Translations under genes and position numbers: made by a program
Shown here: positions 10,908 through 64,000 of the stretch, piece by piece
Position numbering within the stretch: position 1 is the first letter of the stretch
Layout of the letters: each line of letters opens with the position of its first letter
Notes under the pieces: model-generated
The model's input: the letters and a program-made list of their open reading frames with translations, nothing else
What the model was told of the DNA's origin: nothing
Databases searched by the model: none
DNA from: a candidate division WWE3 bacterium UBA1379
Lineage (GTDB): Bacteria > Patescibacteriota > WWE3 > UBA101185 > UBA10185
DNA length: 64,000 nt
Assembly (NCBI GenBank): GCA_002305475.1
Contig: DBRB01000019.1
Location: 56,022-120,021, forward strand
Reading direction: 5' to 3'

Positions 10908-10912
10908 ATGTT

Positions 10913-11326
10913 TTAAGCTTTAGGCTTCTTGGCTCCGTAAACCGATCTGGAAGTTTTTCTGTTCTGTACTCCCTGCAGATCAAAGGAACCTCGAACAATT
11001 GTATACTTGATGCCGGGCAGATCCTTGACTCTACCCCCGCGGACTAGAACCACGGAGTGTTCCTGCAGATTATGTCCTTCACCGGGAATATAGGCTGTAA
11101 CCTCCCTTTTGTTGGATAAACGCACACGCACAACTTTTCGCAAAGCTGAGTTAGGCTTTTTCGGAGTCTGAGTTTTTACCTGTAGACAGACACCCTTTTT
11201 AAAAGGAGAGTCATGCTTAATTGCTACACGCTTTCTGGTATTGTATACCTCCGTCAAAGCTTTAGCCTTAGTCTTTTTATTTTTTGCTTTTCTACTTTTT
11301 CTTAATAATTGGTTAATTGTCGGCAT
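10913..11326 (-). CDS. rpsL: 30S ribosomal protein S12
   Basis: 137 aa. [10 protein letters not shown]…[26 protein letters not shown]…[33 protein letters not shown] is a near-canonical S12. Confidence 0.97.
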
Positions 11327-11349
11327 TTAATAATCTTTACAAACTTCTT

Positions 11350-46126: not shown

Positions 46127-46148
46127 ATTTCAAAAGAATTCTGCAAAT

Positions 46149-47099: not shown

Positions 47100-47180
47100 T
47101 AAAAATATGATATCACAATAATCCGTTAACTAAGTAATATTTTTACCGGCAAACTGCTAAATATTAAATTTTGTATTGGT

Positions 47181-47223
47181 AAAAAACGGGGAAAAGAAAC
47201 ACCCCCTCATAATGAGAGGGTGT
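47181..47223 (-). terminator. Rho-independent terminator downstream of pnp
   Basis: Minus strand: stem CCCTC/GAGGG (with extra flanking pairs) around loop ATAATGA, followed by TTCTTTTCCCCGTTTTTT, just after the pnp stop (47251). Confidence 0.6.
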
Positions 47224-47250
47224 CTTGTTATTCCTAATAATAAAAAGGGC

Positions 47251-49470
47251 TTAGTACCTTTTTCCCCGATCCCTAAAACCTCTGTTATTTCCCCTTCCAC
47301 CGCGGTTATTTCGTTCTCCTCTTGCGGGTCTTCCGCGATATCCTTCAGCATCAGCATTGCTATTGGAAGCACCGGGTTCCAGAGCTTTCTTGGATAAGCT
47401 AACCTTACCGTCTCGGGTAGTTTCAATCACTTTTACCGTAACGGCATCTCCAACTTTTAATACATCATGAACTGAAGATACGTATGAATTGGAAATTTCA
47501 CTGACATGTAAAAGACCCTGCTTTCCGGGAAGTATTTCCACAAAAGCTCCGAAATCCACTAATTCTTTTACAACACCTTCATAAACGTCTCCGACTTTAA
47601 CATCCTCGACCATTGCATTCACCAGATCAATAGCTTTTTTAGCGTCTTCTTCATTAATAGCTGAAGCGGTTACTGTGCCGTCTTCATCAATTGCCAACTC
47701 TGCTCCGGTTCTTTCCTGAAGCTCTTTAATGGTTCTTCCTCCAGAACCGATAATCAATCCGATCTTTTCCACGGCTATGGTTGTAGTAAATGACTTAGGA
47801 GCATACTGAGATACTTTATTCTTCGGTTCTTTGATGGTTTTTTCCATTTCATCAAGAACATGCATTCTTCCTTCTTTTGACTGTTCCATGATTTTCGGAA
47901 GCAATGCAAAAGGTATACCTTTGGCTTTGATATCTGCCTGAATGGCAGTGACACCATTTCTGGTTCCCGTCATCTTAAAGTCCATAAATCCGAAAGCATC
48001 CTCAAGATATGCCAGGTCAGTCATAATCAGCTGCTTGGACATATCATCATTCACAATCAGACCAACCCCCACACCTGCCACCATTTCTTTGATAGGTACA
48101 CCGGCATCCATTAATGCCAAAGTTGATCCGCAGGTTGCAGCCATGGAGCTGGAACCGCTGCTAGATAATGTCTCTGACATCAGAATGATAGTGTATGGAA
48201 ATTCTCTTTGGGTAGGAATTACCGGTCTTAGTGCTTTTTCAGCAAGCATACCGTGACCTATCTCCCTAGATCCGGGAGCTCCTACTCTTCCGGTTTCACC
48301 GACCGAATACGGAGGAAAGTTGTAGTAGTGAATGTATCTTTTGGTAGTTTCTCCGTACATGTTCTGAATAAACAATTCCAGTGAAGGAGAACCTAAAGTA
48401 GCTACTGTCATCACCTGAGTGACACCTCTGGAGAAGATAGCACTTCCGTGAGTTCTGGGAAGGACACCGATTTCAGTGGTGATAGGTCTGATATCCTTAA
48501 CACCGCGTCCGTCAGGTCTTTTTCCTTCATCCAAAATCATGTGCTGCAATGCATGTTTCTCCACTTCGGAAAAAGCTTTAGCCATATCTGCTTTCTTGTA
48601 TTTACCTTCATATTTGGTAATTATTTCCGTCAACAGATTTTCCTGAGCATCTTTAAGTTTTGTCTTGTCAAACCCCTGGCTTAACATTTCCAGAATCCTG
48701 GGTTTAGCAATTTCTTCCACATCCTTCATTAACTGCAGATCCAGCGTTTTTGAAACATATGCCTGTTTTTTCCCCTCAGGGTTTACTGCCTTGGCAAATT
48801 CATCAATGAAAGATACCAAAGAAGCGCTTTCCCTTCTGGCAAATTCCATGGCACCAAGAATCTTTTCCTCGGGGACAATCTTTGCTTCTGCTTCTACGGC
48901 TAAAAATCTTTGGTCTTCATCCACGAAGGAAATCATCATCTCCAGTTCACTTTTTTCATCCAGATCTTTAAGTGTAGGGTTCAGTTTGTAATCTCCGTCA
49001 AAAAATCCGACTCTTGCTGAAACCATGGGACCTTCCCATGGAATATCAGATGCATGTAAACAAGCTGAGGTTGCAATCATACTTAAAAATTCAGGATCGG
49101 ATGACTCATCTAAAGACAATACGGTAGCAATCACCTGCACTTCATCCCCAAAATCAGAAGGAAAGAGAGGTCTGATTGCATGATCAATCAATCTGCGGGT
49201 AACTACTGCTTCATCAGTAGGCTTACCATCTCTTTTCACAAAACGTGAAGTTTTTATTGACCCACTGGCATAAAGTTTTTCTTCATAAACAACTGTCAGA
49301 GGGAAAAAGTCTGTATCTGCAGCTGCGGGAGCGGTTACTGCTGTTACAAGAACAACTGTATCACCATAAGTAGCCTTAACAGCCATGTTGGCTTGCATAG
49401 CAAGCTTGCCTGTTTCCAAAATCAGAGGTTTACCTCCAAAATTGATTTCTTTTTTAATATATTTATTCAT
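47251..49470 (-). CDS. pnp: Polynucleotide phosphorylase with an Arg/Gly-rich C-terminal tail
   Basis: 739 aa. Two RNase PH domains, KH (…GSGGRTIKEL…) and S1 domains. Tail GYRGRPARGERNNRGGRGNNRGFRDRGKRY. Confidence 0.95.
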   Translation of the reverse strand: MNKYIKKEINFGGKPLILETGKLAMQANMAVKATYGDTVVLVTAVTAPAAADTDFFPLTVVYEEKLYASGSIKTSRFVKRDGKPTDEAVVTRRLIDHAIRPLFPSDFGDEVQVIATVLSLDESSDPEFLSMIATSACLHASDIPWEGPMVSARVGFFDGDYKLNPTLKDLDEKSELEMMISFVDEDQRFLAVEAEAKIVPEEKILGAMEFARRESASLVSFIDEFAKAVNPEGKKQAYVSKTLDLQLMKDVEEIAKPRILEMLSQGFDKTKLKDAQENLLTEIITKYEGKYKKADMAKAFSEVEKHALQHMILDEGKRPDGRGVKDIRPITTEIGVLPRTHGSAIFSRGVTQVMTVATLGSPSLELFIQNMYGETTKRYIHYYNFPPYSVGETGRVGAPGSREIGHGMLAEKALRPVIPTQREFPYTIILMSETLSSSGSSSMAATCGSTLALMDAGVPIKEMVAGVGVGLIVNDDMSKQLIMTDLAYLEDAFGFMDFKMTGTRNGVTAIQADIKAKGIPFALLPKIMEQSKEGRMHVLDEMEKTIKEPKNKVSQYAPKSFTTTIAVEKIGLIIGSGGRTIKELQERTGAELAIDEDGTVTASAINEEDAKKAIDLVNAMVEDVKVGDVYEGVVKELVDFGAFVEILPGKQGLLHVSEISNSYVSSVHDVLKVGDAVTVKVIETTRDGKVSLSKKALEPGASNSNADAEGYRGRPARGERNNRGGRGNNRGFRDRGKRY

Positions 49471-49646
49471 TTTTTCCTTTCACGGTAAATCTTGCCTGGG
49501 TACAGGGTTTTATTCTGCCGGCAGACCTGAATGTAAATAAGGGGATTAAGAGATGCAATACTGAGCACGTTATGTTTCCTGCACAATATTTCACACCTTA
49601 ATCCCAAGATTCACCTTAAATTAACTTTACAACAATACTAAAATAA

Positions 49647-49916
49647 TTACTTAGACAGCTCCAGTTTTTCAACCAAAGCAGTATATCTGTCTTCATCTTT
49701 TGATTTAAGATAGGACAGAAGTCTTCTTCTTTTATTAACCATCTGCAAAAGACCTCTTCTTGAGTGATTGTCTTTCTTATGATTTTTCAGATGATCGGTT
49801 AATCGTGCGATCTGTTCGGACAACAATGCTACCTGGACTTCTGGAGAGCCTGTATCACCTTCGTGAACCCTGCTGGTTCTTATTATTTGTGCTTTTTTAT
49901 CCTTAACTAATGCCAT
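49647..49916 (-). CDS. rpsO: 30S ribosomal protein S15
   Basis: 89 aa. …[39 protein letters not shown] is a canonical S15. Lies upstream of pnp as in E. coli. Confidence 0.95.
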
Positions 49917-49985
49917 AATTTTATTCTCCGGACGGAAAAATTAGTGGAGCAGGTTCATTCAAACGTAGCTATATTAGCAAAAAAC

Positions 49986-50660
49986 CTATTTGTGATCAAC
50001 CCTTTTCTCCCTATAAGTCATTCCGGTCAGAAGGGCTTTAGCTGCTTTAGTAGTGGGAACCAATCCCCATTCATATGCATTCTTATATATCACAAGACTC
50101 AAACTCTCGGATGAGGGGTCTATCAAAGCCGCATCTCCATATTTTGTATTTTGCTCGGTATTATCAATATTTATTATCTTGGCAGATCTTATTTCCTGCT
50201 CCAGTTCTCTATAAGTGCTACCCAGATCCTCGGCATCCAGTACACCTATCGTAATAATAAGATCAAAATTAAATCCGCTAACTGTTGCTCTTACTCTATT
50301 ATCAATGTCAAAATCCCTAGAAATAGGACCGACTTTTAAAATCAGAACGTCATTTTCCGTTGAATAATGCACTTTAGCTGCCGGGGTTCCTGCATAATCT
50401 ATCAAAACAAGCAACTCTCTTTCGGTAATATTGGAAACCACATCTTCCTTTGCTATCAGGTCTTCACAGATATCAGGACATTTTCCGGGGTAGATGAACG
50501 ATACTTTCTTCTCTTTGGCGGTCAGCATATGATAAAGACCAACGCCTGCAGAAAAAGCATCCGGTCCGGCAACTTTTGAGGGAATAATGGCAATATGTTT
50601 TGCCCCATCAATCAAGCCGGTGATTTTTTTATCAATGTTAGTATCAAGCAATTCAACCAT
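49986..50660 (-). CDS. DHH-family phosphoesterase-like protein with a degenerate DHH motif (NrnA-like N-domain only)
   Basis: 224 aa. HIAIIPSKVAGPDAFSAGVGLYHML resembles DHH motif I/II. The expected DHH triad position reads NIDNT. No DHHA1 domain. Confidence 0.4.
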   Translation of the reverse strand: MVELLDTNIDKKITGLIDGAKHIAIIPSKVAGPDAFSAGVGLYHMLTAKEKKVSFIYPGKCPDICEDLIAKEDVVSNITERELLVLIDYAGTPAAKVHYSTENDVLILKVGPISRDFDIDNRVRATVSGFNFDLIITIGVLDAEDLGSTYRELEQEIRSAKIINIDNTEQNTKYGDAALIDPSSESLSLVIYKNAYEWGLVPTTKAAKALLTGMTYREKRVDHK

Positions 50661-50839
50661 ATTAATTTTTATCGGGCGTTTATTTTTAGCAGAATATTCC
50701 TATGTAACTATAGGATAAGTAAATACCTTTCTTCATTTCTTCAAGACAGGTGATTATATCAAATCAAAACTATAGGGTCAATGCTTTAATTTGGCGCTTA
50801 TCCCATGACGTCACGTAGATAGTCTGTTATAGTGTTTAT

Positions 50840-51730
50840 ATGCAGGATAGATTTACCTATAAAGAATTCTTGAAAAAGTATAAAGATGATGACATCTGTC
50901 TTGAGGAAATCAAAAATCTGCGCTTCCCTGGTGGCATTACCTGCTCTTCCTGCAAAAAGATCACCAACCACTACCGTATAAAAAGCAAAAAAGTCTATTC
51001 ATGCGAATTTTGTGGAACTCAGGTGAGTCCTTTAGCAGGAACAATCTTCCATAAATCCTCCACGTCATTACAAGACTGGTTTATGGCAATCTACCTTATG
51101 ACTCAAACGAGAAGCGGCACCTCTGCTAAGCAACTACAGCTCATGCTTGGTGTTACCTATAAAACAGCGTGGAGAATGTACAAACAAATTAGAACCCTCA
51201 TGGCTGAAAATTCCGTCACTCCTCTTAATGGAGATGTTGAAATAGATGAAACATACATAGGCGGAGAGGGAATGAATCGGAGATTTAAACCACATTTTAA
51301 CGAAATCCCCAAAGAAGCTGTTATGGGCATGCTCCAAAGGGGTGGAAAAACATATCTTAAACATATTAAAGGAACTGGCAAATGGTATTTGATCGAACAA
51401 ATCAAAACTCATGTTGACCCAGTTGCAAGGCTTATCACCGATGAACTCGCTGCTTACAGAAATCTACCCAAACATGGTTACACGCTTCACGATGTTGTAA
51501 ACCACTCAGAAACGTATGTGGCTGGAGGTATACACACCAACAATATCGAAAACGTGTGGTCTATTATCAAGCGAGGAATATACGGAGTCTACCGAAATGT
51601 TTCGAAAAAATACCTGCAAGCCTATATTGACGAATACGCCTTTAGGTTTAACTACCGCAATCAAGATGAAAATATGTTCTACACACTTCTCAGACAAGTG
51701 GTTAACGTGAGGTTGGTTTCAGTTTTTTAA
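50840..51730 (+). CDS. IS1595-family (ISXO2-like) DDE transposase with N-terminal zinc ribbon
   Basis: 296 aa. CSSCKK…CEFCG zinc ribbon. DDE-domain region. C-terminal …KYLQAYIDEYAFRFNYRNQ matches the IS1595-family …YL(D/Q)E(F/Y).FR(F/Y)N.R signature. ~80-85% identical to ORF 61462..62355. Confidence 0.8.
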   Translation: MQDRFTYKEFLKKYKDDDICLEEIKNLRFPGGITCSSCKKITNHYRIKSKKVYSCEFCGTQVSPLAGTIFHKSSTSLQDWFMAIYLMTQTRSGTSAKQLQLMLGVTYKTAWRMYKQIRTLMAENSVTPLNGDVEIDETYIGGEGMNRRFKPHFNEIPKEAVMGMLQRGGKTYLKHIKGTGKWYLIEQIKTHVDPVARLITDELAAYRNLPKHGYTLHDVVNHSETYVAGGIHTNNIENVWSIIKRGIYGVYRNVSKKYLQAYIDEYAFRFNYRNQDENMFYTLLRQVVNVRLVSVF

Positions 51731-51851
51731 CACCAACCGATTTTTTTAATATGTCTTCAAAAGGTTTTATCTCCTCTTTGAGGTTGTTTTCTTTCTTTAG
51801 GTTTTCCATTTCTTGAGTAAAAGCCTTTTTCTTCTGGTTAATAGATTTCAT
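51704..51851 (-). CDS. Small conserved antisense ORF at the IS1595 3' end (~49 aa), copy A
   Basis: Hand-translated MKSINQKKKAFTQEMENLKKENNLKEEIKPFEDILKKSVGVKKLKPTSR. Overlaps the transposase 3' end convergently. A paralogous ORF is present in IS copy B with conserved residues (QEME.LK, KKLKP.SR). Confidence 0.35.
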
Positions 51852-51854
51852 ATT

Positions 51855-54800
51855 TTATTTATTCTTCTTTTTTAATTTTACAACTATAACCACCAGAATA
51901 ACTATAACAAAAGTTAAGATTCCGATAATTCCATATGATAATGGTGAGATTGAAAGTGGTTTTTCTTGGACGGTAACATTAAGAGCAAACTCCTTAACAT
52001 CTCCCTCTAGATTTATTGATTGTTCACCTACAAATCTGCCGTAGGCAATAATGACTCGGTGGTCACCTGGTTCTACATTATAAAATTCTGCGATACCATC
52101 GCCATCTGTGGTAGTTTCTTGGACTTTTGAGTGCATTGTAACTTTGGCTCCGACTACTGCATCGCCTTTAGTATCAGATACTTTTACTTTGACTTTATAT
52201 CCTTCAGCCTTATCAATAATTTCCGTAGACTTTTCCTGATCCTCTTGACTGTTATTACAATTTATTTTGAGTTCCCAACCACTATTGAGATTATTTGATG
52301 ACCCAAGTGAAGGGTACTTGCCTTTGTTTTGTTCAATTATCTCCTTGTATTTATTGCCGTCTCCCAGTTTCTCCTGAGCTATCGACCACAAACTATCACC
52401 TGATTTGACTGTATATGTTTGACAAGAATTAGCTTGAGTTGACTTCTCTTCTGCAATTGATGTTAATTCAGAATTTGTTATCTCTAAATTGTTTGCAGAA
52501 ACATAACCCCAGGTTTTGGCTGAGATTTCTTGGGACCAATTACCAGCGGCACAGCCATTACCGGCCCTAATCCTAAAGTAGTATCTTGTATTAGGTGAAA
52601 GAGACTTAACCAAATATTCTCTTGTGCCTTTATCTCCAATTGTTGTTGCTCCCCAAATATATTTCCCTGGTTCGGTGCCAAACTCCAGGGCATAGTGTTC
52701 GACTGGGTCACTAGCAGAACCAAATTGCAATAAAATAGAATCGGTGCCTCTGGCAGTTGCTCCCCAGAGTAGCGGTGTACTTCCTGGCGCAGTTTTATCA
52801 CAACTAGGGGCGGAAGCAGAAGAATTACTGCTTGAGGAAGAATCTGAACTGTTGGCATTGATCGTAACTGTGTTTATCGTATCTGTACCACTAGAGGAAT
52901 AGGCGGACGAATTTTCTGCCAGGTCAGCCGATTTGACTCGAAAATACCAGGTTCCATCAGCAAGAGCAGTAGAATGGGTATATGAATTTGTTGTTGAAGT
53001 GTCTGTATTTGAATCACAACCTGTAAAACCAGAGTTAGAACACCACTGAACTGAATAGGGGGAAGTAGACAAACCGGAACCGGTATCAGTTGATGCTGTC
53101 CAAGACCAGGTTGGGGTATTGTCAGTGGTTAATGAGGCAGTCGATGGAGTTCCGGGAGTGGTAGGTGCAGTTGTATCTAAGGTAAACGCTCCGGTATTGT
53201 AGGATGAACCCTGATTTGTTAACGAGTCTCTATACTGCACATATACTGTCCTTGATCCTTCAGTAGTTCCACAGCCGTAAGCTGCAGCTCCCGGCTTGAT
53301 ATCAAAATCAGTTTTGGGAGTAGCATACGCTTCCCAGGCAGTCCAGGTGGCATTGTCGCAAGAAAAGCGCATCTGCGCTCCGGTTACACCCACCCCCGCA
53401 TCGGCAATGGTTAATGCAAGGGAGGGAGTATTATCGTTGGTTGGATCAGTTGCCTGAATGATTGTCCCTGTCGGTCCGGTCGTATCAAAATTTGTAGAAT
53501 CACTGACAATACCTGATTCATTTCCCAGTGCATCCTTCAGTTTTGCGCTGATTGTCTTTGCTCCGTTTATTATGCTGCAGCCTGTTGCTCCTGTAGTGAT
53601 GTCAAAAGAGGAAATGGTATCAGAGTATGCCATCCAGGCAGACCAGTTAGTGCCGCCGTTACAGGAGAAAGCAGCATGCGTCGGTGTACCTGTCTGGGTT
53701 ATCGCAATTGAAGGAGTAGAATCATTGGTGTATCCTCCAGTGTCTGTAATAGCAATAGAGGTTAAGGCAGGTCCTGTGACGTTCCAGGTTACAGAATTAT
53801 CTGAAGTTGTTGATGCATTATTAGGATTGCCGGCTGCGTCATGGGCTTTATCTGCAGCAACACTTACCGTAACTGTTCCTGATCCGGTCATTCCCGATAC
53901 TGCCACATTGTACGTCGTTCCTGATCCCGTAACTGTCGCTGTGGTTGCCCCGGCTGTCCCTCCTAAAGTAACATCACCGGTGGTAAAGTCAGAAACAGAC
54001 TCTGAAAATTCAACAGTAAAATTAATCGGTGAGACATTGGTTGGATCTGACTGTCCCACAGCCTGGTTGATGGTTACATCAGGATTAGTAGTATCAACCG
54101 TCAGTGTCCCTTCTGATTCTTCACTTTCATTACCTGCCAAATCTATGGCTTTGACAAAGAAGTTGTAAATGCCTTCTGCCAGGTTGGTAACCACATTAGT
54201 TAATGCTGTTGTCCCTGAGGTAATTGCTGACCCTGTTGTCCTCCAGGCATACTGCAATACACCTGACACTGCATCGGTCGCCGCCGACCAGGTCCAAGTT
54301 TGCGAAGTCTGGTTGGTTGGAGAGGCAGGTGTAGGTAAAGGAGTGCCAGGTGTACTTGGCGCTCCGGTATCCACTTTGACAGTATTAGCTCCAGTGTAAG
54401 TTGCTTGTTGAGATAGATTATCTGAAACAAGGTGGCGATATTGATAGCAGTTTCCTGAACTAACATCAGTATCTATTAAATTTGGGTAGCTGCCGCTAGG
54501 AGAGATAGCTGAAAAGCTACCGTAAATAGTACATATTCCTAAAATTAAGGGCGCAGATCTTCTCTGAATAATTCTTGATGAGGTATTTACTCCGGAGCCT
54601 GTGCCGTCTGAACCGTCTGCAACAGTTAAAGAAACGGAAGCTATCGTATAGTAACCATCAGTGTAGGTCATTGATCCTCCTGTCGGAGCAGTCGTGTCAT
54701 AAACTGTTGAATCAGAAGCAGTAGATGACTCATTACCTGCTAAGTCCTTCAGCTTTGCAGTTATCGCTTTTGATCCATCGGAAGACGTACAGCCTGTTGC

Positions 54801-57800
54801 ACCATTAGTGACATCAAAAGAAGAGATAGTATCTGAGTATGCAATCCAGGAAGACCAGTTAGTGCCTCCGTTACAGGAGAATGCTACGTGAGTTGGTGAG
54901 CCTGAAGAATTTATGTTAATGGTCGGAGTTGAATCGTTCGTATAGCCCGAAGAATCAGAAATGGTAACTGAAGTTAACGTCGGTGCGGTTTCATCATTTA
55001 GCAGAATTATTGCATCCTCAGACTCTAAAGTAATCGAGCCTACTTCACTGCCGTCATTATATCTGGTTGTTGTTTCTAATCTCACAGCATCGGCAACTAC
55101 AGTACCTGTAGTTCCGGCTCCTGAAAAGACAACACTAGAAGTATCAGTAGTTGTGAAATTGTATGTTCCCAATTCATGCCAGCCTACTGAACCGGTTGTC
55201 TCGTTTAATGTAGTCGTATCTGTACTCCCTGCATGATTTATCGTTACGGAGACATTAGCCCGGTTACTTCCGCTTGGAGCAACCCAAGCATATACAACGT
55301 AATTCCCGTCATACTCAATCACCGGGTTATATGTGACAGTAGCTGCCGGATTACTGCCGGTAATAGTTTTAAAAGTACTGCCGAATTGGTTTGGATAGGA
55401 GGTGCTGGTAGATGCAGTATTGGTCCAACCGCCTGATACCACTGTGGTTGAGTCATCATCATCTACCCGGGTGTAATACAAGGGTGCCTGATTACCGTTA
55501 AGTTTTACATAATTTGTACCGAAAATGGATGTTAAATCAATTGTTTTTTCTTCCGGAGTAATATTTACCAACACTCTACCGTTATCGAATGGTCTAGTCC
55601 ATACTCCGATCGTCCCCTCTTGAAACTTAATGTCATCAAAATAAATATCTCCTTCGCTTGTACCAAGATCAATTGTTAACCTCCCTTGATTACTGTTATT
55701 TACCGTTCCTTTCATTATTAGATAAAAATGCTGCCATTCTGTAGTCAAATTAGCTCTTCCATACTTTAAATCAGAATCAAAAGCGGTATCATACTCCCAA
55801 GGATTGACTTGGCGTTGGACTCGCGTGCCACTTAATGTTCTTGCTGGATTAGCTTTTGCCCAGAAAGATAAAGTGTAATATTTATCCACTTCTATGGTTA
55901 AGTTGTTTTGGTAAAAAACAATATAATGCGATCCATCTCCAGCCGGATTCCCCGCAGGAATAGAGATATGCGCTCCCGGTCCGCCGCTAATTCCACCAGT
56001 AGCATCAATGCTTAATGGATTTACAGAGACTCCAGCTCCTGCGGCTTCCAGTGACCAATTGCTTGTTCCGCTGCTGAAATCTCCATTAGCAATATCATCC
56101 GTGCTGCTTAATGTTGGTATCGCTAATGCAGCATCTGCGGTTGGCTGACCTAAATAACCGGTGGTTGTGTAGTCTCCTTGTGTACCATACTCGTCATACC
56201 AATAATTATGTCCATATGAGTAAGGCGACAAATCATACGAAAAGACTCCGTTACCCATTAAAGCTGTAACCAGTCCAAACCTCAGTCTTTTGTAGTCACT
56301 ACCCGCCTCATTGATCATTGCGGTGGGCATATTAGTTACACCTGGCCCGTATTTGCTAGCTATAGCTGCTAAGGAGTTAGTGTTTAAATCCACGATCACA
56401 GGTGTTTGCTCGCCATTACTGATCCAATTTTTATAGTAATTAACGGTATCAATCCAAGGTGAAGGATAATAATCATCTATGTAATTTCTTACGTCATTTT
56501 CTAAAAATCTCCCATTTTCCCACGTACCATAGCTAATAGGTGAACCATTTCCAATGATAATTGCATTAGGGATGGCAGCTCTGATTTGAGCTAAAGCACT
56601 TTCCACTCCGGCTTGATAGGCTGCATTTAGAGTTGCTGTGTTATCTGCTACTCCATCGAGATCCGAATCAATATCTGGTCCGATGGTATTAGTTATAGTT
56701 GTGCCTACCATATCCCAAAACCACCCATCAAAAGCCAAATTGGTCTCCTCCCAATTGTCTACAGCCTGATTAACTAATTGCGTCACACAATAAGCATTAG
56801 TCAGGTTATACATAGGATTCCCGTATGTTCCATTAGTCAGTATTGTCCCTGAGGTATTTCTAAACATACATGGGTAACCAGGATCACCGGGTGAAGCGTT
56901 TAACCATGTACTGTAAACATTATGTGCAAGATAGGAACCGGCCTGGCCATACGTTAAATCCTGGGTCATCAATACTTTTGCCTTGGAATTAATTGCCCTA
57001 ATCGCATTTGCTCTAGATTGGGCGGTGGCATTACTTGACCAGGATATCCACGTATTGTAGCCTGCGAAATAATCATTTTGATACGACCCTCCGTAAGACC
57101 CCCATTGGTTATACAGCCTAGGATATCCAGCATCAAAGGTCCCCATCTTTCTTAACTGGGTGGTAACTTCCATGCTGTCGGCCGATCTTCCGGTAGCTGG
57201 AGTGTCATCGCATCGAACATAAAAGGTTCGAGTGGTAATAGTATTCCAATTACTAATTGAGGTACTGTGCGCAGTTGTTCCCTGACCAGTTGTAAAATTA
57301 TTGGTCATACTGGCATATGGAGTATCAGGCGATTCGCTATAACGGCAATTTGCATTAGCCCAGGTAGTTAAACTAAGGGTTGCAGAAGATGTATCTGAAC
57401 TTAATAAACGGTATGACGGTGACAATGAACTCAGTGCGGGGGTGTAATAATATGGTCCCAGATCAAGAGTGTCATTAGCAACATCTGCACTGTTATAACT
57501 CTTAACATGAAGATAATAGGGAATCGAAGAATCCGTACCTGTAGTCAAAGTTAAAGTACCGCTGGTCCATTGAGTTTCTGATTCATTCCATACATGGGTA
57601 GCTGAATTGTCCCATGCCCACCTGAGGTACTGGATCGCACCAGCACCGAAACCTGCGCCATTTGTTACCACATAAGTATTGGGCAAAGTATGTTCTATGG
57701 TTATATTTGACAAAGTTGGAGCCGTGGATAGGGTTGTATATGTAGCATTAGACGAGGGGGAAGAATTTCCATAGGAATTATAGGCGACAACTCTGCGAGT

Positions 57801-60605
57801 ATAGGAAGTATTTGCTGTTAAACTTGATTCTTCACAGTTAACCTCGTTACCCGTTCCGCTGGATGGGGAAGACACGGTGCAAACTGTATTATTTGATAAG
57901 TCCTTTACATAAAAACCATCTTCATTTGAAGCATTATCAATCCAGGACCATGTAATACTGTCGGAGTCAGCAGAATCTCCGGAAAAACTTGTTGGTGGTT
58001 GAGGAGTTGATGATTGAAAATCCAAAGAAAAGCTGGAAAGGTTTGGAGTATTCACTCCATCAGAACTTGCCAGCGTAACGTAATACTGTAAGTACCTATG
58101 ACCGTCAGTAACGCAGTTATTGGAGGAAATGTCGCTACCAGACGATATCGGATCACATCCCGAAAAAGCGGGAGCATCTGACATATCTGAATTATTCGAA
58201 GTACGTACCCTGACCGAGGTCGTAGTGTTGGCTGGCGTACCGGCAGTGTATGTTAAATTGTTCCAAGTCGTGGCCTGTTCAGTATCGAATATGGACGAAG
58301 TCAAAGTGCCACTAGATGCATAAGCTTTATATAAACTAATATCGTCAACATAAACAGTTTTCCCGCCTTTAATTTTTAAACCATAATCACGAGTAGCATT
58401 AGCACCGGTTAGTGTGCCCGTTAACAGATACCAACCGTCTCTTATAAGAGCGTAGGACGTGGTGACAGTACCGCCACTATAATAAAGCTCGGCATCGGAA
58501 TCAGTCACAGCCGAACCTGTTGTATATACACTGGCATTAAGTGTATATGTGCTTGTATCTCCCACATTTACTGATTGGCCAAAAACACCATTACCTTCTG
58601 CTGCGATAACTTTAGCAGACCCGGCACCATTAAGTTTGGTTGTGGCGTCCTGGCTTATTGTCGGTTCTTCCTGTGGGGCTGCATGTACCGGCCAGTTAAT
58701 AAAACCATCAAGAGTATTTTCTGAGTAAGTTGAGAAAAGACCATGATTAGTGTTATTGATGATACTGGAGTCGGAAACAGTAGCTGAACCTATAAAACTG
58801 TCGTTATAGTAAACATTGTATGTTGTGCCGTTTTTAATAACTCTCAACTTCCTTTCAGCCACATACCCTGAAGCATAATTAATGAGTGTCGTATAATGAC
58901 CATCCACCACTTTTTCCAGTTTAGTTCTGGATACGCCATCGTTGTAAACAATAACAAAATTCTGAGGGTTTGAGGTGCTATCAAGATTTAATACAATACC
59001 TGCTTGAGTGTAAGCAGTAACTGTAGGGAGTATTTCAATATTCACATCAGGTGTCGTGTACGAACTGGTTGCAAACAGGGAAGTCAAACTCATTTGTTTT
59101 AATGAAACATCATCATAATAATAGGTATGACCATTCGTTGCGGAAAACAGACCTACTTGGTAGGTAGTTTGTTCGTTTCCAGCAGTATTTATCGTATGTC
59201 CGGTACCTAATAGATTAGTAAAAGTTCCTGCGGATGTACTACGATCTACAATCTTTGTCCAAGGATTATTCTGCATTACCAATTGTGAAGACAAACCGTT
59301 CGTTCCATTAGACTGTACCCAAGAGTTATACAAATACCAATTTCCTAAACCAAGTGTTATGTTCTTTCGGATATTGCTCGCACTGGTAGTAGAAACACAT
59401 TTACTGGAATGAGTCGGACTATTATAAACAGCCGCATCCGATGTATAAGTACAATTACTAGTGCTCCAGCCTGTAGGGGGAGACCCTGTTTCCATATCGC
59501 CGTTAGTAATAAGTTCTGAGCCCAAAGTAGGTGAGTTTTTAGCTTTATTACCGGAAACAGTCCAGGTCGCCGTATCAAATGTCCATGTTTTTTGGGTAAC
59601 AGTTTGAGAATCAGGACCCGTGGTTTCAGTATTACCTAAAGCGCCATCTGTCCGGTTAAATGTATCATAGGCCAAAAGATTAACGGGTGTATCTTTTAAT
59701 GTGTATACTCTGATGTTATCCACTGTAAAAACTGCAGTCGTAGATTGTGCTTGAATCCATGGTCTCTCGTTGCTGTTACCCGTATTCGAAACCCACAACA
59801 AGGTCCAGTTTGTGTATGATCCCCCTTTGATATACCAAGCTAACCCGTTTGCTCTCATCATTGACGCTATCTGGTATGTTGTTCCAGCAGTATATGCACC
59901 GACATTTGAAACCGAAACGCCATTGATGTATATACCCAATATTCCACTGCTTAATAAATTCAAAGATTCAGTCATTACACCACTGGTTCCGGTACTCCAG
60001 CCAATAGATGCCCCACCATTGGTATCTGCTGGGGTAATATTAGCAATTAATGTCAAGCCGGAAGTTCGTGGTTGCGAAGCATAATAAACGCCGTCGTTTA
60101 CCGCGGCTCCGGTTGCAAAACTGAGAACGCCACCCGCAGTGATAGTAATCTTACTGTTGGTGTCAATAACAGTTCTTGTTCCTGGACCCGGTTCAGCTGG
60201 GGTGCCGTTAACACTCCCAGCATCCCTTTGAGTCGTATACTGATCGTATAATGCATAGCTTCCTGTACTCCACCCGGATATATCCGAGTCAAAAGTTGTA
60301 TTAGTTAGCTTTTCTACACCACCGAGTTTTATTTGGTTGGGTGTTGAGAAGACTACATTTGAAGATGTATTAAACTTGGTGACGTCAGAATAAGTAGTTT
60401 GGCCACTCCCGCCTACCCAGTTAGTCTGTGACCAGGGTGAGGATGCTGCGTAAACCGGAGTTACAAAAAGTAAAAAATTCTGAATAATTATATAAAAAGT
60501 GAGAAGAACAGTTGTTAGAAGATGGCGAAACCGTTTACTTAATCTTAATTTTGATAGAGAAACGGTAGCATTTTTCGATAATAATGATCTAATATCGAAG
60601 CCCAT
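51855..60605 (-). CDS. Giant cell-surface protein (2916 aa): N-terminal signal/TM, Thr/Ser-rich Ig/FN3-like repeats, possible glycoside-hydrolase-like TIM-barrel region, LysM, CarbopepD_reg-like domain, C-terminal TM anchor
   Basis: N-terminal hydrophobic LLTTVLLTFYIIIQNFLLFVTPVYA. Two ~100-aa near-identical internal repeats (…SDSSGYTNDSTPTININSSG…FSCNGGTNWS… and …TDTGGYTNDSTPSIAITQTG…FSCNGGTNWS…). FN3-like PTTPGTP…TWSW segments. LysM-like YTVKSGDSLWSIAQEKLGDGNKYKEIIEQN. GYKVKVKVSD…GAKVTM…TTDGDGIAEF (CarboxypepD_reg-like). C-terminal IIGILTFVIVILVVIVVKLKKKNK. Confidence 0.85.
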   Translation of the reverse strand: MGFDIRSLLSKNATVSLSKLRLSKRFRHLLTTVLLTFYIIIQNFLLFVTPVYAASSPWSQTNWVGGSGQTTYSDVTKFNTSSNVVFSTPNQIKLGGVEKLTNTTFDSDISGWSTGSYALYDQYTTQRDAGSVNGTPAEPGPGTRTVIDTNSKITITAGGVLSFATGAAVNDGVYYASQPRTSGLTLIANITPADTNGGASIGWSTGTSGVMTESLNLLSSGILGIYINGVSVSNVGAYTAGTTYQIASMMRANGLAWYIKGGSYTNWTLLWVSNTGNSNERPWIQAQSTTAVFTVDNIRVYTLKDTPVNLLAYDTFNRTDGALGNTETTGPDSQTVTQKTWTFDTATWTVSGNKAKNSPTLGSELITNGDMETGSPPTGWSTSNCTYTSDAAVYNSPTHSSKCVSTTSASNIRKNITLGLGNWYLYNSWVQSNGTNGLSSQLVMQNNPWTKIVDRSTSAGTFTNLLGTGHTINTAGNEQTTYQVGLFSATNGHTYYYDDVSLKQMSLTSLFATSSYTTPDVNIEILPTVTAYTQAGIVLNLDSTSNPQNFVIVYNDGVSRTKLEKVVDGHYTTLINYASGYVAERKLRVIKNGTTYNVYYNDSFIGSATVSDSSIINNTNHGLFSTYSENTLDGFINWPVHAAPQEEPTISQDATTKLNGAGSAKVIAAEGNGVFGQSVNVGDTSTYTLNASVYTTGSAVTDSDAELYYSGGTVTTSYALIRDGWYLLTGTLTGANATRDYGLKIKGGKTVYVDDISLYKAYASSGTLTSSIFDTEQATTWNNLTYTAGTPANTTTSVRVRTSNNSDMSDAPAFSGCDPISSGSDISSNNCVTDGHRYLQYYVTLASSDGVNTPNLSSFSLDFQSSTPQPPTSFSGDSADSDSITWSWIDNASNEDGFYVKDLSNNTVCTVSSPSSGTGNEVNCEESSLTANTSYTRRVVAYNSYGNSSPSSNATYTTLSTAPTLSNITIEHTLPNTYVVTNGAGFGAGAIQYLRWAWDNSATHVWNESETQWTSGTLTLTTGTDSSIPYYLHVKSYNSADVANDTLDLGPYYYTPALSSLSPSYRLLSSDTSSATLSLTTWANANCRYSESPDTPYASMTNNFTTGQGTTAHSTSISNWNTITTRTFYVRCDDTPATGRSADSMEVTTQLRKMGTFDAGYPRLYNQWGSYGGSYQNDYFAGYNTWISWSSNATAQSRANAIRAINSKAKVLMTQDLTYGQAGSYLAHNVYSTWLNASPGDPGYPCMFRNTSGTILTNGTYGNPMYNLTNAYCVTQLVNQAVDNWEETNLAFDGWFWDMVGTTITNTIGPDIDSDLDGVADNTATLNAAYQAGVESALAQIRAAIPNAIIIGNGSPISYGTWENGRFLENDVRNYIDDYYPSPWIDTVNYYKNWISNGEQTPVIVDLNTNSLAAIASKYGPGVTNMPTAMINEAGSDYKRLRFGLVTALMGNGVFSYDLSPYSYGHNYWYDEYGTQGDYTTTGYLGQPTADAALAIPTLSSTDDIANGDFSSGTSNWSLEAAGAGVSVNPLSIDATGGISGGPGAHISIPAGNPAGDGSHYIVFYQNNLTIEVDKYYTLSFWAKANPARTLSGTRVQRQVNPWEYDTAFDSDLKYGRANLTTEWQHFYLIMKGTVNNSNQGRLTIDLGTSEGDIYFDDIKFQEGTIGVWTRPFDNGRVLVNITPEEKTIDLTSIFGTNYVKLNGNQAPLYYTRVDDDDSTTVVSGGWTNTASTSTSYPNQFGSTFKTITGSNPAATVTYNPVIEYDGNYVVYAWVAPSGSNRANVSVTINHAGSTDTTTLNETTGSVGWHELGTYNFTTTDTSSVVFSGAGTTGTVVADAVRLETTTRYNDGSEVGSITLESEDAIILLNDETAPTLTSVTISDSSGYTNDSTPTININSSGSPTHVAFSCNGGTNWSSWIAYSDTISSFDVTNGATGCTSSDGSKAITAKLKDLAGNESSTASDSTVYDTTAPTGGSMTYTDGYYTIASVSLTVADGSDGTGSGVNTSSRIIQRRSAPLILGICTIYGSFSAISPSGSYPNLIDTDVSSGNCYQYRHLVSDNLSQQATYTGANTVKVDTGAPSTPGTPLPTPASPTNQTSQTWTWSAATDAVSGVLQYAWRTTGSAITSGTTALTNVVTNLAEGIYNFFVKAIDLAGNESEESEGTLTVDTTNPDVTINQAVGQSDPTNVSPINFTVEFSESVSDFTTGDVTLGGTAGATTATVTGSGTTYNVAVSGMTGSGTVTVSVAADKAHDAAGNPNNASTTSDNSVTWNVTGPALTSIAITDTGGYTNDSTPSIAITQTGTPTHAAFSCNGGTNWSAWMAYSDTISSFDITTGATGCSIINGAKTISAKLKDALGNESGIVSDSTNFDTTGPTGTIIQATDPTNDNTPSLALTIADAGVGVTGAQMRFSCDNATWTAWEAYATPKTDFDIKPGAAAYGCGTTEGSRTVYVQYRDSLTNQGSSYNTGAFTLDTTAPTTPGTPSTASLTTDNTPTWSWTASTDTGSGLSTSPYSVQWCSNSGFTGCDSNTDTSTTNSYTHSTALADGTWYFRVKSADLAENSSAYSSSGTDTINTVTINANSSDSSSSSNSSASAPSCDKTAPGSTPLLWGATARGTDSILLQFGSASDPVEHYALEFGTEPGKYIWGATTIGDKGTREYLVKSLSPNTRYYFRIRAGNGCAAGNWSQEISAKTWGYVSANNLEITNSELTSIAEEKSTQANSCQTYTVKSGDSLWSIAQEKLGDGNKYKEIIEQNKGKYPSLGSSNNLNSGWELKINCNNSQEDQEKSTEIIDKAEGYKVKVKVSDTKGDAVVGAKVTMHSKVQETTTDGDGIAEFYNVEPGDHRVIIAYGRFVGEQSINLEGDVKEFALNVTVQEKPLSISPLSYGIIGILTFVIVILVVIVVKLKKKNK

Positions 60606-60701
60606 AAGCGTAATCTTTCAGTAAAGATCTTACTCGGGCTTCGTGAGCCTCAAAACTCACAGGTAATTATCTTGTGAATTTGTAATTAAATACTAGTACA
60701 T

Positions 60702-61145
60702 TTAAGAAGAAAATTCAACTTCTTCACCTAGAAAAAAGGCGATTTCTTTGTTATTGTCCAAAAATGGCTCTATGTGAAGGCGTACATTATATGATTTACC
60801 GGATTTCGTTTTGTTTTGCAAATCTACGGTAACTGACTTTTTCATTATTAGCTTACTCCACATATTTTTGTAAAACGAATCAGGCATTTGTTTCCCCCAT
60901 ATAGATGGCTTTTTGCCAATCACTTCAGAAAGTGCATAACCTGTTACTTCTTCCATTTTTTTGTTGATGGAGAGAATAGTGCCGTTTTTGTCGGTAATAA
61001 TTATTTGGCGCTCAGCTTCCAAGTCAAAAGATGTGATTGAACCGCACCTATGGCATTTGATAGAAATTGCAGAAGAATATGTTTCTGAAGCTAATAATTT
61101 TTCGCATTTGCGACATCGATATTCCTTTTGTGATTTTGGATTCAT
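60702..61145 (-). CDS. Zinc-ribbon + PAS domain small protein
   Basis: 147 aa. CRKCEKL…CHRCGS zinc ribbon. PAS-like core IIITDKNGTILSINKKMEEVTGYALSEVIGKKPSIWG…VRLHIEPFLD. Confidence 0.6.
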   Translation of the reverse strand: MNPKSQKEYRCRKCEKLLASETYSSAISIKCHRCGSITSFDLEAERQIIITDKNGTILSINKKMEEVTGYALSEVIGKKPSIWGKQMPDSFYKNMWSKLIMKKSVTVDLQNKTKSGKSYNVRLHIEPFLDNNKEIAFFLGEEVEFSS

Positions 61146-61284
61146 TACTAGTAATTATAGTCTTTTATATCTGATTTTATTCATTTTCTTACGATTGTGG
61201 TATTTAGGAGATGTACTGATTGTGACTTTGGATAGTCTAATATTTTGCATATACGATAATTTGTAATGGTGGTATAGTATCCCC

Positions 61285-61420
61285 CCCTATATATAAGGAA
61301 TAAGAGGGGAAAGTAAAAATGAGAAATGCCTTAATATCGGTCTAAATCGAAATGTTTCATTACCTACCGGTAGGCTAATTTTACGTTACGTTAGGGGATA
61401 GGTACCTTTAATTTGGCAAT
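61285..61420. repeat. ~140-bp dispersed repeat, copy 1, with palindrome CCTACCGGTAGG and a tiny RBS-preceded ORF
   Basis: ~85-90% identical by eye to 63745..63880 (TAAGGAATAAGAGGGGAAA…ATATCGGTCTAA…TTACCTACCGGTAGGCTAATTTTACGTTACGT…GGGATAGGT.CCTTTAATTT). Confidence 0.8.
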
Positions 61421-61461
61421 TATCCCTTGACATCACGTAACTAATCTGTTATTGTATATAC

Positions 61462-62355
61462 ATGCAAGACAGATTTACCTACAAAGAATTCCTGAAAAAA
61501 TATAAAAATGATGATATCTGTCTTGAAGAAATAAAAAATCTTCGTTTTCCCGAGGGTATTAACTGTTCTTCCTGCAAAAAGATCACTAATCACTACCGGA
61601 TTAAAAGTAAAAAGGTCTACTCTTGTGAATTTTGTGGTACTCAGGTGAGTCCTCTGGCTGGGACGATTTTCCATAAATCTTCAACCTCTTTACAAGACTG
61701 GTTTATGGCGATCTACCTCATGACCCAAACAAGAAGTGGTACATCATCAGCTAAGCAGCTACAACGCATGCTCGGTGTTACCTATAAGACAGCATGGAGA
61801 ATGTACAAGCAAATTCGCACCATCATGGCTGAGAATTCAGTTACTCCACTAGATGGAGAGGTTGAAATAGATGAAACTTATATTGGTGGAAAAGGGATGA
61901 ACAGGAGGTTTAAGCCACATTTCAACGAAATTCCAAAAGAAGCAATAATGGGGATGCTGCAACGAGGTGGTAAAACGTATCTCAAACACATCAAAGGAAC
62001 TGGAAAATGGTATTTGATTGAGCAAATCAAAACCCACGTTGATCCAATTGCAAGACTAATCACTGATGAACTGGCGGCATATAGAAATCTACCTCAACAT
62101 GGCTATATGCTTCATGATGTAGTAAATCACTCAGAAACTTATGTTGTAGGTGATATTCACACCAACAATATTGAGAATGTCTGGTCGATTATCAAAAGAG
62201 GCATTTATGGAGTTTATCGGAATGTTTCCAAGAAATATCTACAAGCCTATATCGATGAATACGTATTTAGGTTCAACTGCCGCAATCAAGATGAAAATAT
62301 GTTTTACACACTACTGAGACAAGTAGTTAACGTGAGGATGGTTTCGGTTTCTTAG
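61462..62355 (+). CDS. IS1595-family (ISXO2-like) DDE transposase, paralog B
   Basis: 297 aa. Collinear with and ~80-85% identical to 50840..51730. Same zinc ribbon and …YIDEYVFRFNCRNQ C-terminus. Confidence 0.8.
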   Translation: MQDRFTYKEFLKKYKNDDICLEEIKNLRFPEGINCSSCKKITNHYRIKSKKVYSCEFCGTQVSPLAGTIFHKSSTSLQDWFMAIYLMTQTRSGTSSAKQLQRMLGVTYKTAWRMYKQIRTIMAENSVTPLDGEVEIDETYIGGKGMNRRFKPHFNEIPKEAIMGMLQRGGKTYLKHIKGTGKWYLIEQIKTHVDPIARLITDELAAYRNLPQHGYMLHDVVNHSETYVVGDIHTNNIENVWSIIKRGIYGVYRNVSKKYLQAYIDEYVFRFNCRNQDENMFYTLLRQVVNVRMVSVS

Positions 62356-62476
62356 TGATCACAGCTTTTTTCAAAACCTCTCCAAACGATTTTTCTTCTT
62401 CTATTAGTTTATCTTCTGTTTTTAATCTTTCCATTTCTTGAGCAAAGGATTTCCTTTTTTGATTTTGAGTTTTCAT
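62328..62476 (-). CDS. Small conserved antisense ORF at the IS1595 3' end, copy B
   Basis: Hand-translated MKTQNQKRKSFAQEMERLKTEDKLIEEEKSFGEVLKKAVITKKPKPSSR. Paralog of 51704..51851. Confidence 0.35.
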
Positions 62477-62480
62477 AATA

Positions 62481-63647
62481 TTATTTTCCGATAGCAATTA
62501 ATTCATATTCTTTTTCCAAGTCGTCAATTTGTATATCCAACCTTGCGGGAACCTGTTTAAGAAAAGTTGAAACACGCGTATTTGAGTTCATCGTCATGAA
62601 ATCGGATTGGCCACTTAAATCGGCCGCAGTTGCTAATGATGTACCCATTATTTTTGGCCAAGCATCATCACCAACATTCGATAATCGACGTCTTAATGCA
62701 TCCCAATATCTTGCCCCTGAGTAGTATGTTGTGTCTCTATGAGTTGCAACATCGTATGGAAGTGGATTATCCAAGAGATCTCTAAAGGAGGGGGATTTTC
62801 TTAGTTGCCTACCATCCTCGCCTAGAGCACCTGCAATACCTTCATATATTGGGTTATCGGATCCTAATTTCAGAAGTTCAATCAACGTTGTATCAGTAAT
62901 ACCATGGCTGCCTTCATGTTGTGCGGTAAGCAATAATTTATCAGTCATGCTTTGAGTTTCGCCTGCTCGAACTGCTCTAGCTGCATAAGAAAAATAATCA
63001 TGACCTCTTGGTTTATCGTGACGATGTAGTCGTGATCCCAAAATTACTCCTCGCTCATTAATTTTTGCCCATGCAGGAATTCTATCTAAAAGTGCTCCGA
63101 TAAAATTGAAGTCTTCCCAAACTTTCGGACTATCAAAGTGTGAAGGCAGTGCAACTACAAGAAACCCATCATTTTCATTGATTAAATCTGAATGTCTTTG
63201 GACAACATCCCCAACTATTTTTGCCTGAGTTTCAGATAAATATTTCTTTGCGTCTCGAAAATAGGAATTGTGTTTTCTTCTGTATGCTTGCATCCTTCCG
63301 ATGTACTTATCCATTGCGGCTAAGCAGGTATCTGCATTCCATGTAATCCCATTATCGACACCTTCAAATGTTGCAAACTCATCTTGCATTCTTAAGAAAT
63401 CTTTATGGGGAACGAAAACTCCACCTGATACGGTCTGAGGTTGCCACTCTGTACCACGAAGCTTACCCGCTCTAAACAAAGCCCCAATATGACCATGTAT
63501 TACGGAAAACAATGGGTTATCTGAGGCATCACCATGATGTAAGTCACGTAAAGCAACTTTTACTTCTAAATAATATGGCTCGAATTTAGGAGTTCTATCT
63601 AAAATACTTGATAATTTTTGTTGTTCCAAACTATCTAACATAATCAT
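62481..63647 (-). CDS. Hypothetical protein (388 aa) with an HExxH-like motif (HEGSH); possible metallopeptidase-like, GC-shifted cargo gene
   Basis: Long ORF abutting the IS copy B right end. Composition visibly GC-richer than neighbours. Only recognisable feature is …TAQHEGSHGITD…. Confidence 0.5.
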   Translation of the reverse strand: MIMLDSLEQQKLSSILDRTPKFEPYYLEVKVALRDLHHGDASDNPLFSVIHGHIGALFRAGKLRGTEWQPQTVSGGVFVPHKDFLRMQDEFATFEGVDNGITWNADTCLAAMDKYIGRMQAYRRKHNSYFRDAKKYLSETQAKIVGDVVQRHSDLINENDGFLVVALPSHFDSPKVWEDFNFIGALLDRIPAWAKINERGVILGSRLHRHDKPRGHDYFSYAARAVRAGETQSMTDKLLLTAQHEGSHGITDTTLIELLKLGSDNPIYEGIAGALGEDGRQLRKSPSFRDLLDNPLPYDVATHRDTTYYSGARYWDALRRRLSNVGDDAWPKIMGTSLATAADLSGQSDFMTMNSNTRVSTFLKQVPARLDIQIDDLEKEYELIAIGK

Positions 63648-63744
63648 CTGAATTATATCAGTTTAAGGATTCGTAAGTAGGATGAAGACTAATTTATATA
63701 AGCGAATACTGAATACTTTATTGAATCTCTTTTCACCTCTCCCT

Positions 63745-63880
63745 TATTTATAAGGAATAAGAGGGGAAAATGAAAATAACAATTGCCGTTATATCGGTCT
63801 AATTCGAAAATTCTTATTACCTACCGGTAGGCTAATTTTACGTTACGTCAAGGGATAGGTGCCTTTAATTTCGAATTGAA
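63745..63880. repeat. ~140-bp dispersed repeat, copy 2
   Basis: See 61285..61420. Sits ~100 bp upstream (on the minus strand) of the 388-aa gene. Contains the same CCTACCGGTAGG palindrome and a mini-ORF ending …ISV*. Confidence 0.8.
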
Positions 63881-64000
63881 AAAGTAAGAAATTTGCATAA
63901 AATAGTGAAAACAAAACCGATTAACGAACTTCTATCCACTGCCCTTCGGCAATTCCTTCAAAGATAGGTTTGAGTAATACTCCGCATTCATTATCCTTAC

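Follow-up and report, generated by a model that had tools for sequence, protein, structure and literature searches.

Does the gene for a giant surface protein in a candidate division WWE3 genome lie between two insertion sequences (ISs) that could mobilize it jointly, or does it belong to a single larger element? The question is raised by a 64,000-nucleotide stretch of the WWE3 bacterium UBA1379 (GenBank assembly GCA_002305475.1, contig DBRB01000019.1, positions 56,022 to 120,021), which is referred to here as the window. An earlier note on this DNA had described, at 50786-62476, two transposase genes of the IS1595 family that bracket a block of ~9.5 kb, and had read the arrangement as composite-transposon-like. 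Our analysis points to a different layout. The region most probably consists of two separate IS1595-family unit transposons, designated A and B, each of which carries passenger genes in the manner of a transporter IS. The two elements stand in tandem in the spacer between infB and the DHH-rpsO-pnp genes of this Candidate Phyla Radiation (CPR) bacterium.

Two pairs of inverted repeats delimit two elements

The transposase open reading frames (ORFs) at 50840..51730 (296 aa) and 61462..62355 (297 aa) are present, intact, collinear, and both on the plus strand, as had been described, and their assignment to the IS1595 family holds. Transposase A matches DDE_Tnp_IS1595 (PF12762) over the whole profile with an E value of 2.2e-35 and scores 189.6 bits against NCBIfam NF033547, for which the cut-off is 75; transposase B matches DDE_Tnp_IS1595 over the full profile with an E value of 5.2e-35. 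Both proteins contain Zn_ribbon_IS1595 (PF12760; E 4e-9, residues 15-61) with CxxC pairs at residues 35 and 55. Candidate catalytic residues D136, D201, E237, and K244 fall in the motifs IDETY, ITDEL, and NIENVWSIIK.

The two ORFs align over ~1.07 kb with 84% DNA identity, far above chance, and their longest identical run measures 24 nt. The proteins are 94% identical (278/296); the 80-85% protein identity proposed earlier suits the DNA. Synonymous sites are saturated (proportion of synonymous differences, pS, 0.695; nonsynonymous divergence, dN, 0.028; dN/dS ~0.014), which indicates that the A and B lineages split long ago. The divergence had been taken as a sign of old insertions. It does bear out an ancient separation of the copies; it does not date the insertions, whose 8-mers are identical and whose transposase ORFs are both intact. 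As a side observation, transposases of this clade (A versus B, and also those on contigs L012 and L001) are 94-96% identical in protein and only 79-84% identical in DNA, a degree of constraint that is unusually high for an IS transposase.

Homology between the two copies begins at CTTTAATTTGGC. This shared left end is real, but it is composed of two parts: the 8-bp target-site duplication TTTAATTT and a left inverted repeat that starts with GGC. The left end reappears as its reverse complement, TTACGTTACGTTAGGGGATAGGTACC, directly upstream of copy B and again at 63838-63863. The window contains exactly four copies of the 25-nt terminal inverted repeat GGCnnnTATCCCnTGACnTnACGTA; the motif GGCNNNTATCCCNTGACNTNACGTA, with up to 3 mismatches allowed, gives four matches where 0.02 would be expected by chance. 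The repeats follow one another in the order left, right, left, right at 50793-50817 (+; GGCGCTTATCCCATGACGTCACGTA), 61382-61406 (-; GGTACCTATCCCCTAACGTAACGTA), 61415-61439 (+), and 63839-63863 (-; GGCACCTATCCCTTGACGTAACGTA), with cargo inside each pair. The left and right repeats of A agree at 19/25 positions, and the left repeat of A and the right repeat of B at 21/25. The 8-bp duplications expected of this family are found as TTTAATTT, which abuts every outer repeat tip in three copies (50785..50792, 61407..61414, and 63864..63871), the middle one common to A and B. The same 8-mer occurs 13 times on the plus strand of the window, or 2e-4 per position.

Within 900 nt downstream of each transposase gene, no sequence resembles a right repeat at more than 13/25 positions, which is the background level and argues against two small ISs around a block. 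Because the sole right ends (61382-61406 and 63839-63863) sit beyond the cargo, the giant gene and the zinc-ribbon/PAS gene, which do lie between the transposases on the minus strand as had been reported, are inside the repeat pair of A alone. The complete elements are A, at 50793-61406 (10,614 bp), and B, at 61415-63863 (2,449 bp); the full structure extends over 50785-63871, and the span of 50786-62476 halves the second element. The precise alignment that the earlier note had called for thus gives each copy its own repeat pair flanked by 8-bp repeats. Its general idea of a giant surface-protein gene on mobile DNA survives in the form of a gene enclosed by the repeats of element A.

A and B share a common plan that consists of a left repeat holding a predicted transposase promoter, the transposase gene (+), an antisense ORF of 49 aa, the cargo (-), a right-end module of ~100 nt, and the right repeat. 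The similar 3' flank of the two transposase genes, pointed out previously, is indeed conserved and is actually the 49-aa ORF on the opposite strand.

Related elements in other genomes

When representative genomes were scanned, an 808-kb contig from a metagenome-assembled genome (MAG) labelled Saccharibacteria (L001) aligned to window positions 61415-63863 only, with 87% identity over 2,449 nt from repeat tip to repeat tip. The flanks of that element are unrelated to those in the window, and AAAATTAG is present on both of its sides. Element B is a discrete mobile unit that recurs alone as a 2.45-kb element elsewhere. B-type elements occupy different sites with different duplications in the window, in L001, in L048 (AAAATTAT in the left flank), and in L039 and L040; the last two are distinct sites whose elements encode one and the same transposase protein.

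Perfect 8-bp duplications flank ten related elements on other contigs, 1.95-2.9 kb in size, which share these repeats and differ in cargo; the L001 copy of B is one of them. Together they show that B-type and sister elements are mobile. Besides L001, lengths and duplications are 2929 bp and GTATTTTA in L004, 2257 bp and ACAACTTA in L012, 1950 bp and TTAATTCC in L013 and L033 (the same site), 2632 bp and CCAAATAG in L014 and L015, 2052 bp and TTCCGGAA in L020, 2617 bp in both L039 (GCTGTTGG) and L040 (CCTTTTGC), and 2197 bp and CGTTTTAA in L043. In A, B, and all sister elements, passenger genes sit within the repeat pair of a single element. Three contigs of the Logan assemblies built with k=31 (L041, L042, and L049) start exactly at a repeat tip, which is expected of multi-copy elements. 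The transposase family is very large, with 4,207 proteins at E<=1e-60, and it belongs to CPR lineages wherever the sources name them. Viral contigs contained no match to the repeat or the transposase.

Element A was seen as one complete copy and one truncated relative. At 10001-14250 of contig L002, a 5'-truncated transposase of the clade, which lacks its first ~27 codons and the left repeat, stands tail to tail with a surface-protein gene. The encoded protein is at least 1104 aa in length, runs off the contig end, and matches residues 528-963 of the giant protein with 45% identity over 455 aa. This pairing hints that the association between transposase and giant protein is not unique. Contig L002 is labelled Gammaproteobacteria, for which we suspect a binning error.

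Host locus and assembly support

To the left of A lies a DHH-family gene (49986..50660, -), followed by rpsO and pnp. The right flank contains the 3' end of host infB (63921..64000, -), which encodes an IF-2 C-terminus, KDNECGVLLKPIFEGIAEGQWIEVR up to the stop, that matches the IF-2 C-termini of two relatives, L028 and L029. In these relatives the order is nusA-infB-DHH-rpsO-pnp, infB is separated from the DHH gene by 109-146 nt, and neither an IS nor the giant gene is found between the two. Since distant relatives have infB beside DHH-rpsO-pnp, the whole 13.07 kb (50793-63863) is an insertion in the infB/DHH spacer. The earlier note had named as a contrary outcome a giant gene at the same place in related genomes that lack the IS; L028 and L029 are without the giant gene there. 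The window cargo genes are co-directional with the host operon. Other clade members are likewise located inside CPR core housekeeping clusters, as illustrated by the L033 element (9954-11903), which is flanked by fusA and tuf.

Logan assemblies of run SRR5321211, which are independent of the window's own assembly, cover most of the structure. Contig L027 equals window 45508-61388 except for 2 single-nucleotide polymorphisms, both in host genes. Contig L032 equals window 61362-63845 and reads an A-type right repeat (TTAGGGGATAGGTACC), TTTAATTT, and the left repeat of B. The left junction, all of A, and the A/B junction are thereby reproduced. Both contigs end within a 33-nt run that is identical between the right ends of A and B. 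Exact-protein look-ups of the window proteins returned sample SRR5321211 only, with no alternative alleles and no strain that has an empty site.

Target preference and stacking

Comparison of the insertion sites revealed a shared feature outside the duplicated bases. Reading outward from the repeat tip, 8 bp are followed by 3 nt and then by TTGAC in L003, L004, L013, L014, L021, L039, L043, and the window. Among the first 24 unique flanks, 8 had TTGAC at +3 against a background of 0.001 (binomial p = 7e-19). L048, a site retrieved once the rule had been formulated, conforms to it (AAAATTAT-ccc-TTGACT-N17-TATAAT), which brings the count to 9 independent flanks of 25. Within outward flanks of 60 nt, TTGAC occurs ten times at offset 3 and once elsewhere (offset 35); because L013 and L033 are the same site, the ten occurrences represent nine of 17 independent sites. 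A -10 box follows the hexamer at a spacing of 16-17 nt at several sites (L013, L043, L048, and the window).

In the window, the hexamer belongs to a predicted host promoter, TTGACC-N17-TATAAT (50753..50781, -), which lies upstream of the DHH gene and has its -35 box 3 nt beyond the target duplication. It is the best promoter-like site in the region, with 11/12 matches plus an extended TG. The hexamer is also found within the element's own inverted repeat (CCCTTGACA), where the copy in B supplies the -35 box for a promoter-like site directed toward the transposase. A strict target sequence was ruled out: the ten duplications, TTTAATTT and the nine given above for L001 (AAAATTAG) and the sister elements (GTATTTTA to CGTTTTAA), differ from one another and yield no consensus. 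The 8-mers have no consensus while the flanks agree, which places the targeting cue in the flank rather than in the duplicated bases. A limited literature search found no description of a TTGAC-linked target preference for IS1595.

In the two-element reading, this lineage prefers to insert so that the duplicated 8 bp sit 3 nt from TTGAC(A/C), usually a host -35 box at the target. The duplication restores the arrangement of 8 bp, N3, and TTGAC beside the new element, and the site remains a target. A second element can then land in the identical 8 bp to produce duplication-A-duplication-B-duplication, and head-to-tail stacking is explained because insertion regenerates the target. A would have arrived later than B, because A is the element that adjoins TTGACC. 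The identical 8-mers are unlikely to be relics of an old duplication in situ, since the divergence of A and B is ancient; two separate arrivals are more likely. A broader model, which we put forward tentatively, has a little less than even odds. An IS1595 transporter clade that is widespread in CPR bacteria would home to the upstream edge of sigma-70-type promoters, its transposase reading TTGAC(A) both in its own repeat and in the target and placing the repeat tip 11 nt upstream of a host -35 box. In the element's own repeat, TTGAC(A) would double as the -35 box of the transposase promoter. A standard cargo slot, which would accommodate anything from a 240-aa protein to the 2916-aa surface protein, would allow genes to be ferried between phyla without gene disruption in compact genomes.

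Alternative explanations

The pseudo-compound (composite) transposon remains the obvious competitor of the two-element reading. It proposes that two direct IS copies mobilize the 9.5-kb block through their outer ends or by recombination, and it would account for the direct orientation of the transposase genes around the block and for the identical outermost 8-mers at 50785-92 and 63864-71. A genuine pseudo-compound transposon of the IS1595 family, Tn7560, is bounded by ISApl4 (PMC12561309). Application of this explanation to the window is very unlikely to be correct. Neither transposase module has its own right repeat ahead of the cargo; B is complete apart from A, has cargo of its own, and is found alone as a 2.45-kb unit elsewhere; and the internal junction of A right repeat, TTTAATTT, and B left repeat is that of two complete elements. 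The Tn7560 copies are identical, whereas those in the window have saturated synonymous sites. A third identical 8-mer in the middle is unexpected after one-piece movement, and the same internal copy led us to reject a one-piece insertion of A plus B. The deletion by recombination between copies that had been envisaged earlier fares no better, because DNA with 84% identity and no identical run longer than 24 nt is a poor substrate for homologous deletion. A different possibility concerns A alone, which might be no unit but an IS fragment (left repeat, transposase, and small ORF) that, together with an orphan right end of 130 nt resembling a miniature inverted-repeat transposable element (MITE), flanks a native or separately acquired giant gene. 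In its favor, A is known from one complete copy, the right repeat of A is more degenerate than the other three, and homologues of the giant protein exist as ordinary chromosomal genes without an IS (L050). We nonetheless consider this unlikely. The 8 bp to the left of A's left repeat equal the 8 bp to the right of its right repeat, for which the chance is ~2e-4; the layout of A is that of every complete sister element; the infB/DHH spacer of the relatives holds no giant gene; and L002 provides a second pairing of such a transposase with a giant protein.

The perfect alternation of duplication and element could also stem from an ancient tandem duplication by unequal exchange between flanking 8-bp repeats, followed by divergence in place and replacement of the cargo. 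Such an exchange would give exactly the observed product. It would, however, have had to be old enough to saturate the synonymous sites of the transposases, and the 24 unconstrained bases of the three 8-mers would not have remained identical for so long. B is moreover nearer to the L001 element, from a MAG labelled as a different phylum (87% DNA identity), than to A, which indicates separate arrivals and leaves tandem duplication an extremely improbable account. We regard as equally improbable that the assembly joined in tandem two alleles of one site, A in one strain and B in another. The 33-nt identical run at the right ends does break k=31 assemblies, and it is where both L027 and L032 stop. 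The independent contig L032, however, passes from TTAGGGGATAGGTACC through TTTAATTT into the left repeat of B, a junction sequence that would be absent from either single-element allele.

Several points weigh against the reading of two tandem unit transposons or against the targeting model. The host relatives are distant: the nearest homologues of the DHH-family flanking protein, a list that includes proteins named candidate division WWE3, are 62-63% identical, so that no close strain is available for comparison, and the empty site is deduced from synteny rather than seen in a strain. The right junction of B with infB is present in the window's assembly alone. The right repeat of A departs from the consensus at its tip (GGT for GGC) and in the TTGAC block (CTAAC), and given these departures element A may be crippled. 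With a single complete copy of A known, its movement as a 10.6-kb unit is something that we infer. As to the targeting model, TTGAC at 9/17 sites is a preference and no requirement. Survivorship of insertions upstream of promoters could contribute to the pattern; selection for harmless sites would be insufficient by itself, because the spacing of exactly 3 nt stays unexplained. Recognition of TTGAC by the transposase, in its own ends and in the target, is likewise something that we infer from the sequences.

Comparison with known systems

Members of the IS1595 family have an N-terminal Zn finger, a DDE_Tnp_IS1595 domain, and 8-bp duplications, and the N-terminal zinc ribbon is present in all subgroups except IS1016 (PMC8101967). 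Each defining feature of the family that could be checked was found in the window elements, namely the catalytic domain, the zinc ribbon, the 8-bp duplication, and the terminal inverted repeats. The ends, GGCAATTATCCC, resemble the ISNwi1 and ISSod11 consensus (ggnnatTAT and nnnGcnTATC), a resemblance that we use as a lead. The sizes listed for IS1595 are not known to exceed ~8 kb (the ISNha5 group), and element A, at 10.6 kb, would be larger.

Transporter ISs with passenger genes were first noted in the IS1595 family (Siguier, Gagnevin & Chandler 2009, as cited in PMC3129680, PMC4611040, and PMC11891212). A and B resemble them in that one IS1595-type transposase, terminal inverted repeats, and an 8-bp duplication enclose genes that are not involved in transposition. 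They differ in the fixed plan of this clade (antisense 49-aa ORF, cargo slot, and right-end module), in the TTGAC-linked preference, and in their CPR hosts. Relative to what was found, novelty lies in how large A is and what it carries, in the modular chassis with its antisense micro-ORF and right-end module, in the very strong constraint on the transposase, and in the target preference linked to the -35 box.

Tn7560 consists of two identical complete 712-bp copies of ISApl4 (IS1016 subgroup), each with both repeats, around cargo (PMC12561309). The window shares with it the direct orientation of IS1595 transposases on either side of cargo and A/T-rich 8-bp duplications, and the catalytic motifs of the window transposases parallel the ISApl4 motif quoted in that study. 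Unlike in Tn7560, the cargo lies within one element's repeat pair, and the transposase genes, 84% identical, belong to two separate elements; there are no two complete flanking ISs, and the copies are not near-identical.

The stacking recalls two other systems, Tn7-like elements that stack at attTn7 and IS30, which targets its own repeats; we treat both as leads. In each, as proposed here, neighboring sequence sets the position of insertion, tandem arrays form by re-use of a site, or the target resembles the element end. The window elements differ in that no dedicated target-selector protein is evident, that the cue is a generic -35-like hexamer found at many promoters rather than one chromosomal site, and that the preference is partial (9/17).

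Giant surface proteins are thought to mediate attachment in CPR episymbionts. If A is mobile, a giant surface protein can travel in CPR bacteria on an element with one transposase, and the surface repertoire would be horizontally exchangeable. Such exchange would match the underlying point of the earlier note by a different mechanism. If the targeting model is true, a fixed distance to -35 boxes would offer a DDE transposon a simple route to harmless sites in gene-dense genomes. Annotation of such loci as an IS plus neighboring genes misses the real element boundaries in this clade.

Cargo and accessory features of elements A and B

The main cargo of A is the giant surface protein (51855..60605, -; 2916 aa), which contains GHL15, Golvesin_C, Big_13, fn3, and LysM domains and a C-terminal hydrophobic stretch that we read as a membrane anchor. 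A homologue search returned no close full-length relative; the best matches had ~40% identity over 16-30% of the length. Partial homologues are ordinary chromosomal genes elsewhere, such as P0003, which lies beside trigger factor in L050. Inside the giant gene, a 200-nt direct repeat with 73% identity (53578-53777 and 54790-54989) probably corresponds to the repeated domain '...SCNGGTNWS.W.AYSDTISSFD...' in the translation. The second cargo gene of A (60702..61145, -) encodes a protein of 147 aa with profile matches to a zinc ribbon and PAS.

The cargo of B is a 388-aa protein (62481..63647, -), for which the gene caller sets the start 6 nt later to give 386 aa. It is also found in L001 and L049, and a cargo of matching size (389 aa) occupies the same position in L039 and L040. 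Searches of PADLOC, Pfam, NCBIfam, and PDB sequences yielded no match for this protein or for most sister cargos. Exceptions are a PIG-L deacetylase (L014) and a cargo in L020 (1129-2244, -) that matches the PADLOC candidate defense family PDC-S45 with an E value of 7e-14; the L020 element is a more distant member, with 47% transposase identity.

In B, a promoter-like site, TTGACA-17-TATTGT (61427-61455), faces the transposase gene, and its -35 box lies within the left repeat. A stretch of 6 nt separates the end of the -10 box from the transposase ATG, a spacing that suggests that the mRNA of the transposase has no leader or almost none. The counterpart in A is ATGACG-17-TATAGT (50805-50833).

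The right-end subterminal modules (A, 61284..61381; B, 63741..63838) contain a hairpin, CTCCCTTATT/AATAAGAGGGG, and the perfect palindrome CCTACCGGTAGG. Measured with the right repeat included, the modules of A and B have 86% identity over 123 nt, despite the saturated synonymous sites of the transposases. An Rfam scan of 50500-64000 at E<=1 gave no match, which indicates that the module is not a known RNA. In L012 (11058-11161), the module separates the small ORF from the cargo and does not follow the latter, and this element apparently has two cargo slots.

The lysine-rich 49-aa ORF (A, 51702..51851, -; B, 62327..62476, -) is antisense to the 3' end of the transposase gene. Between A and B, its proportion of nonsynonymous differences (pN, 0.21) is lower than its pS (0.69), a contrast that speaks for a genuine coding sequence. 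It is conserved across the close clade and is predicted by independent gene callers, and the copy in B is called as a gene in the Logan contig. In A, the ORF comes directly behind the cargo; it shares the reading frame of the giant ORF and lies one codon beyond the stop of the latter. The cargo protein of L020 may have a similar peptide as its C-terminal tail (33% identity, a weak match).

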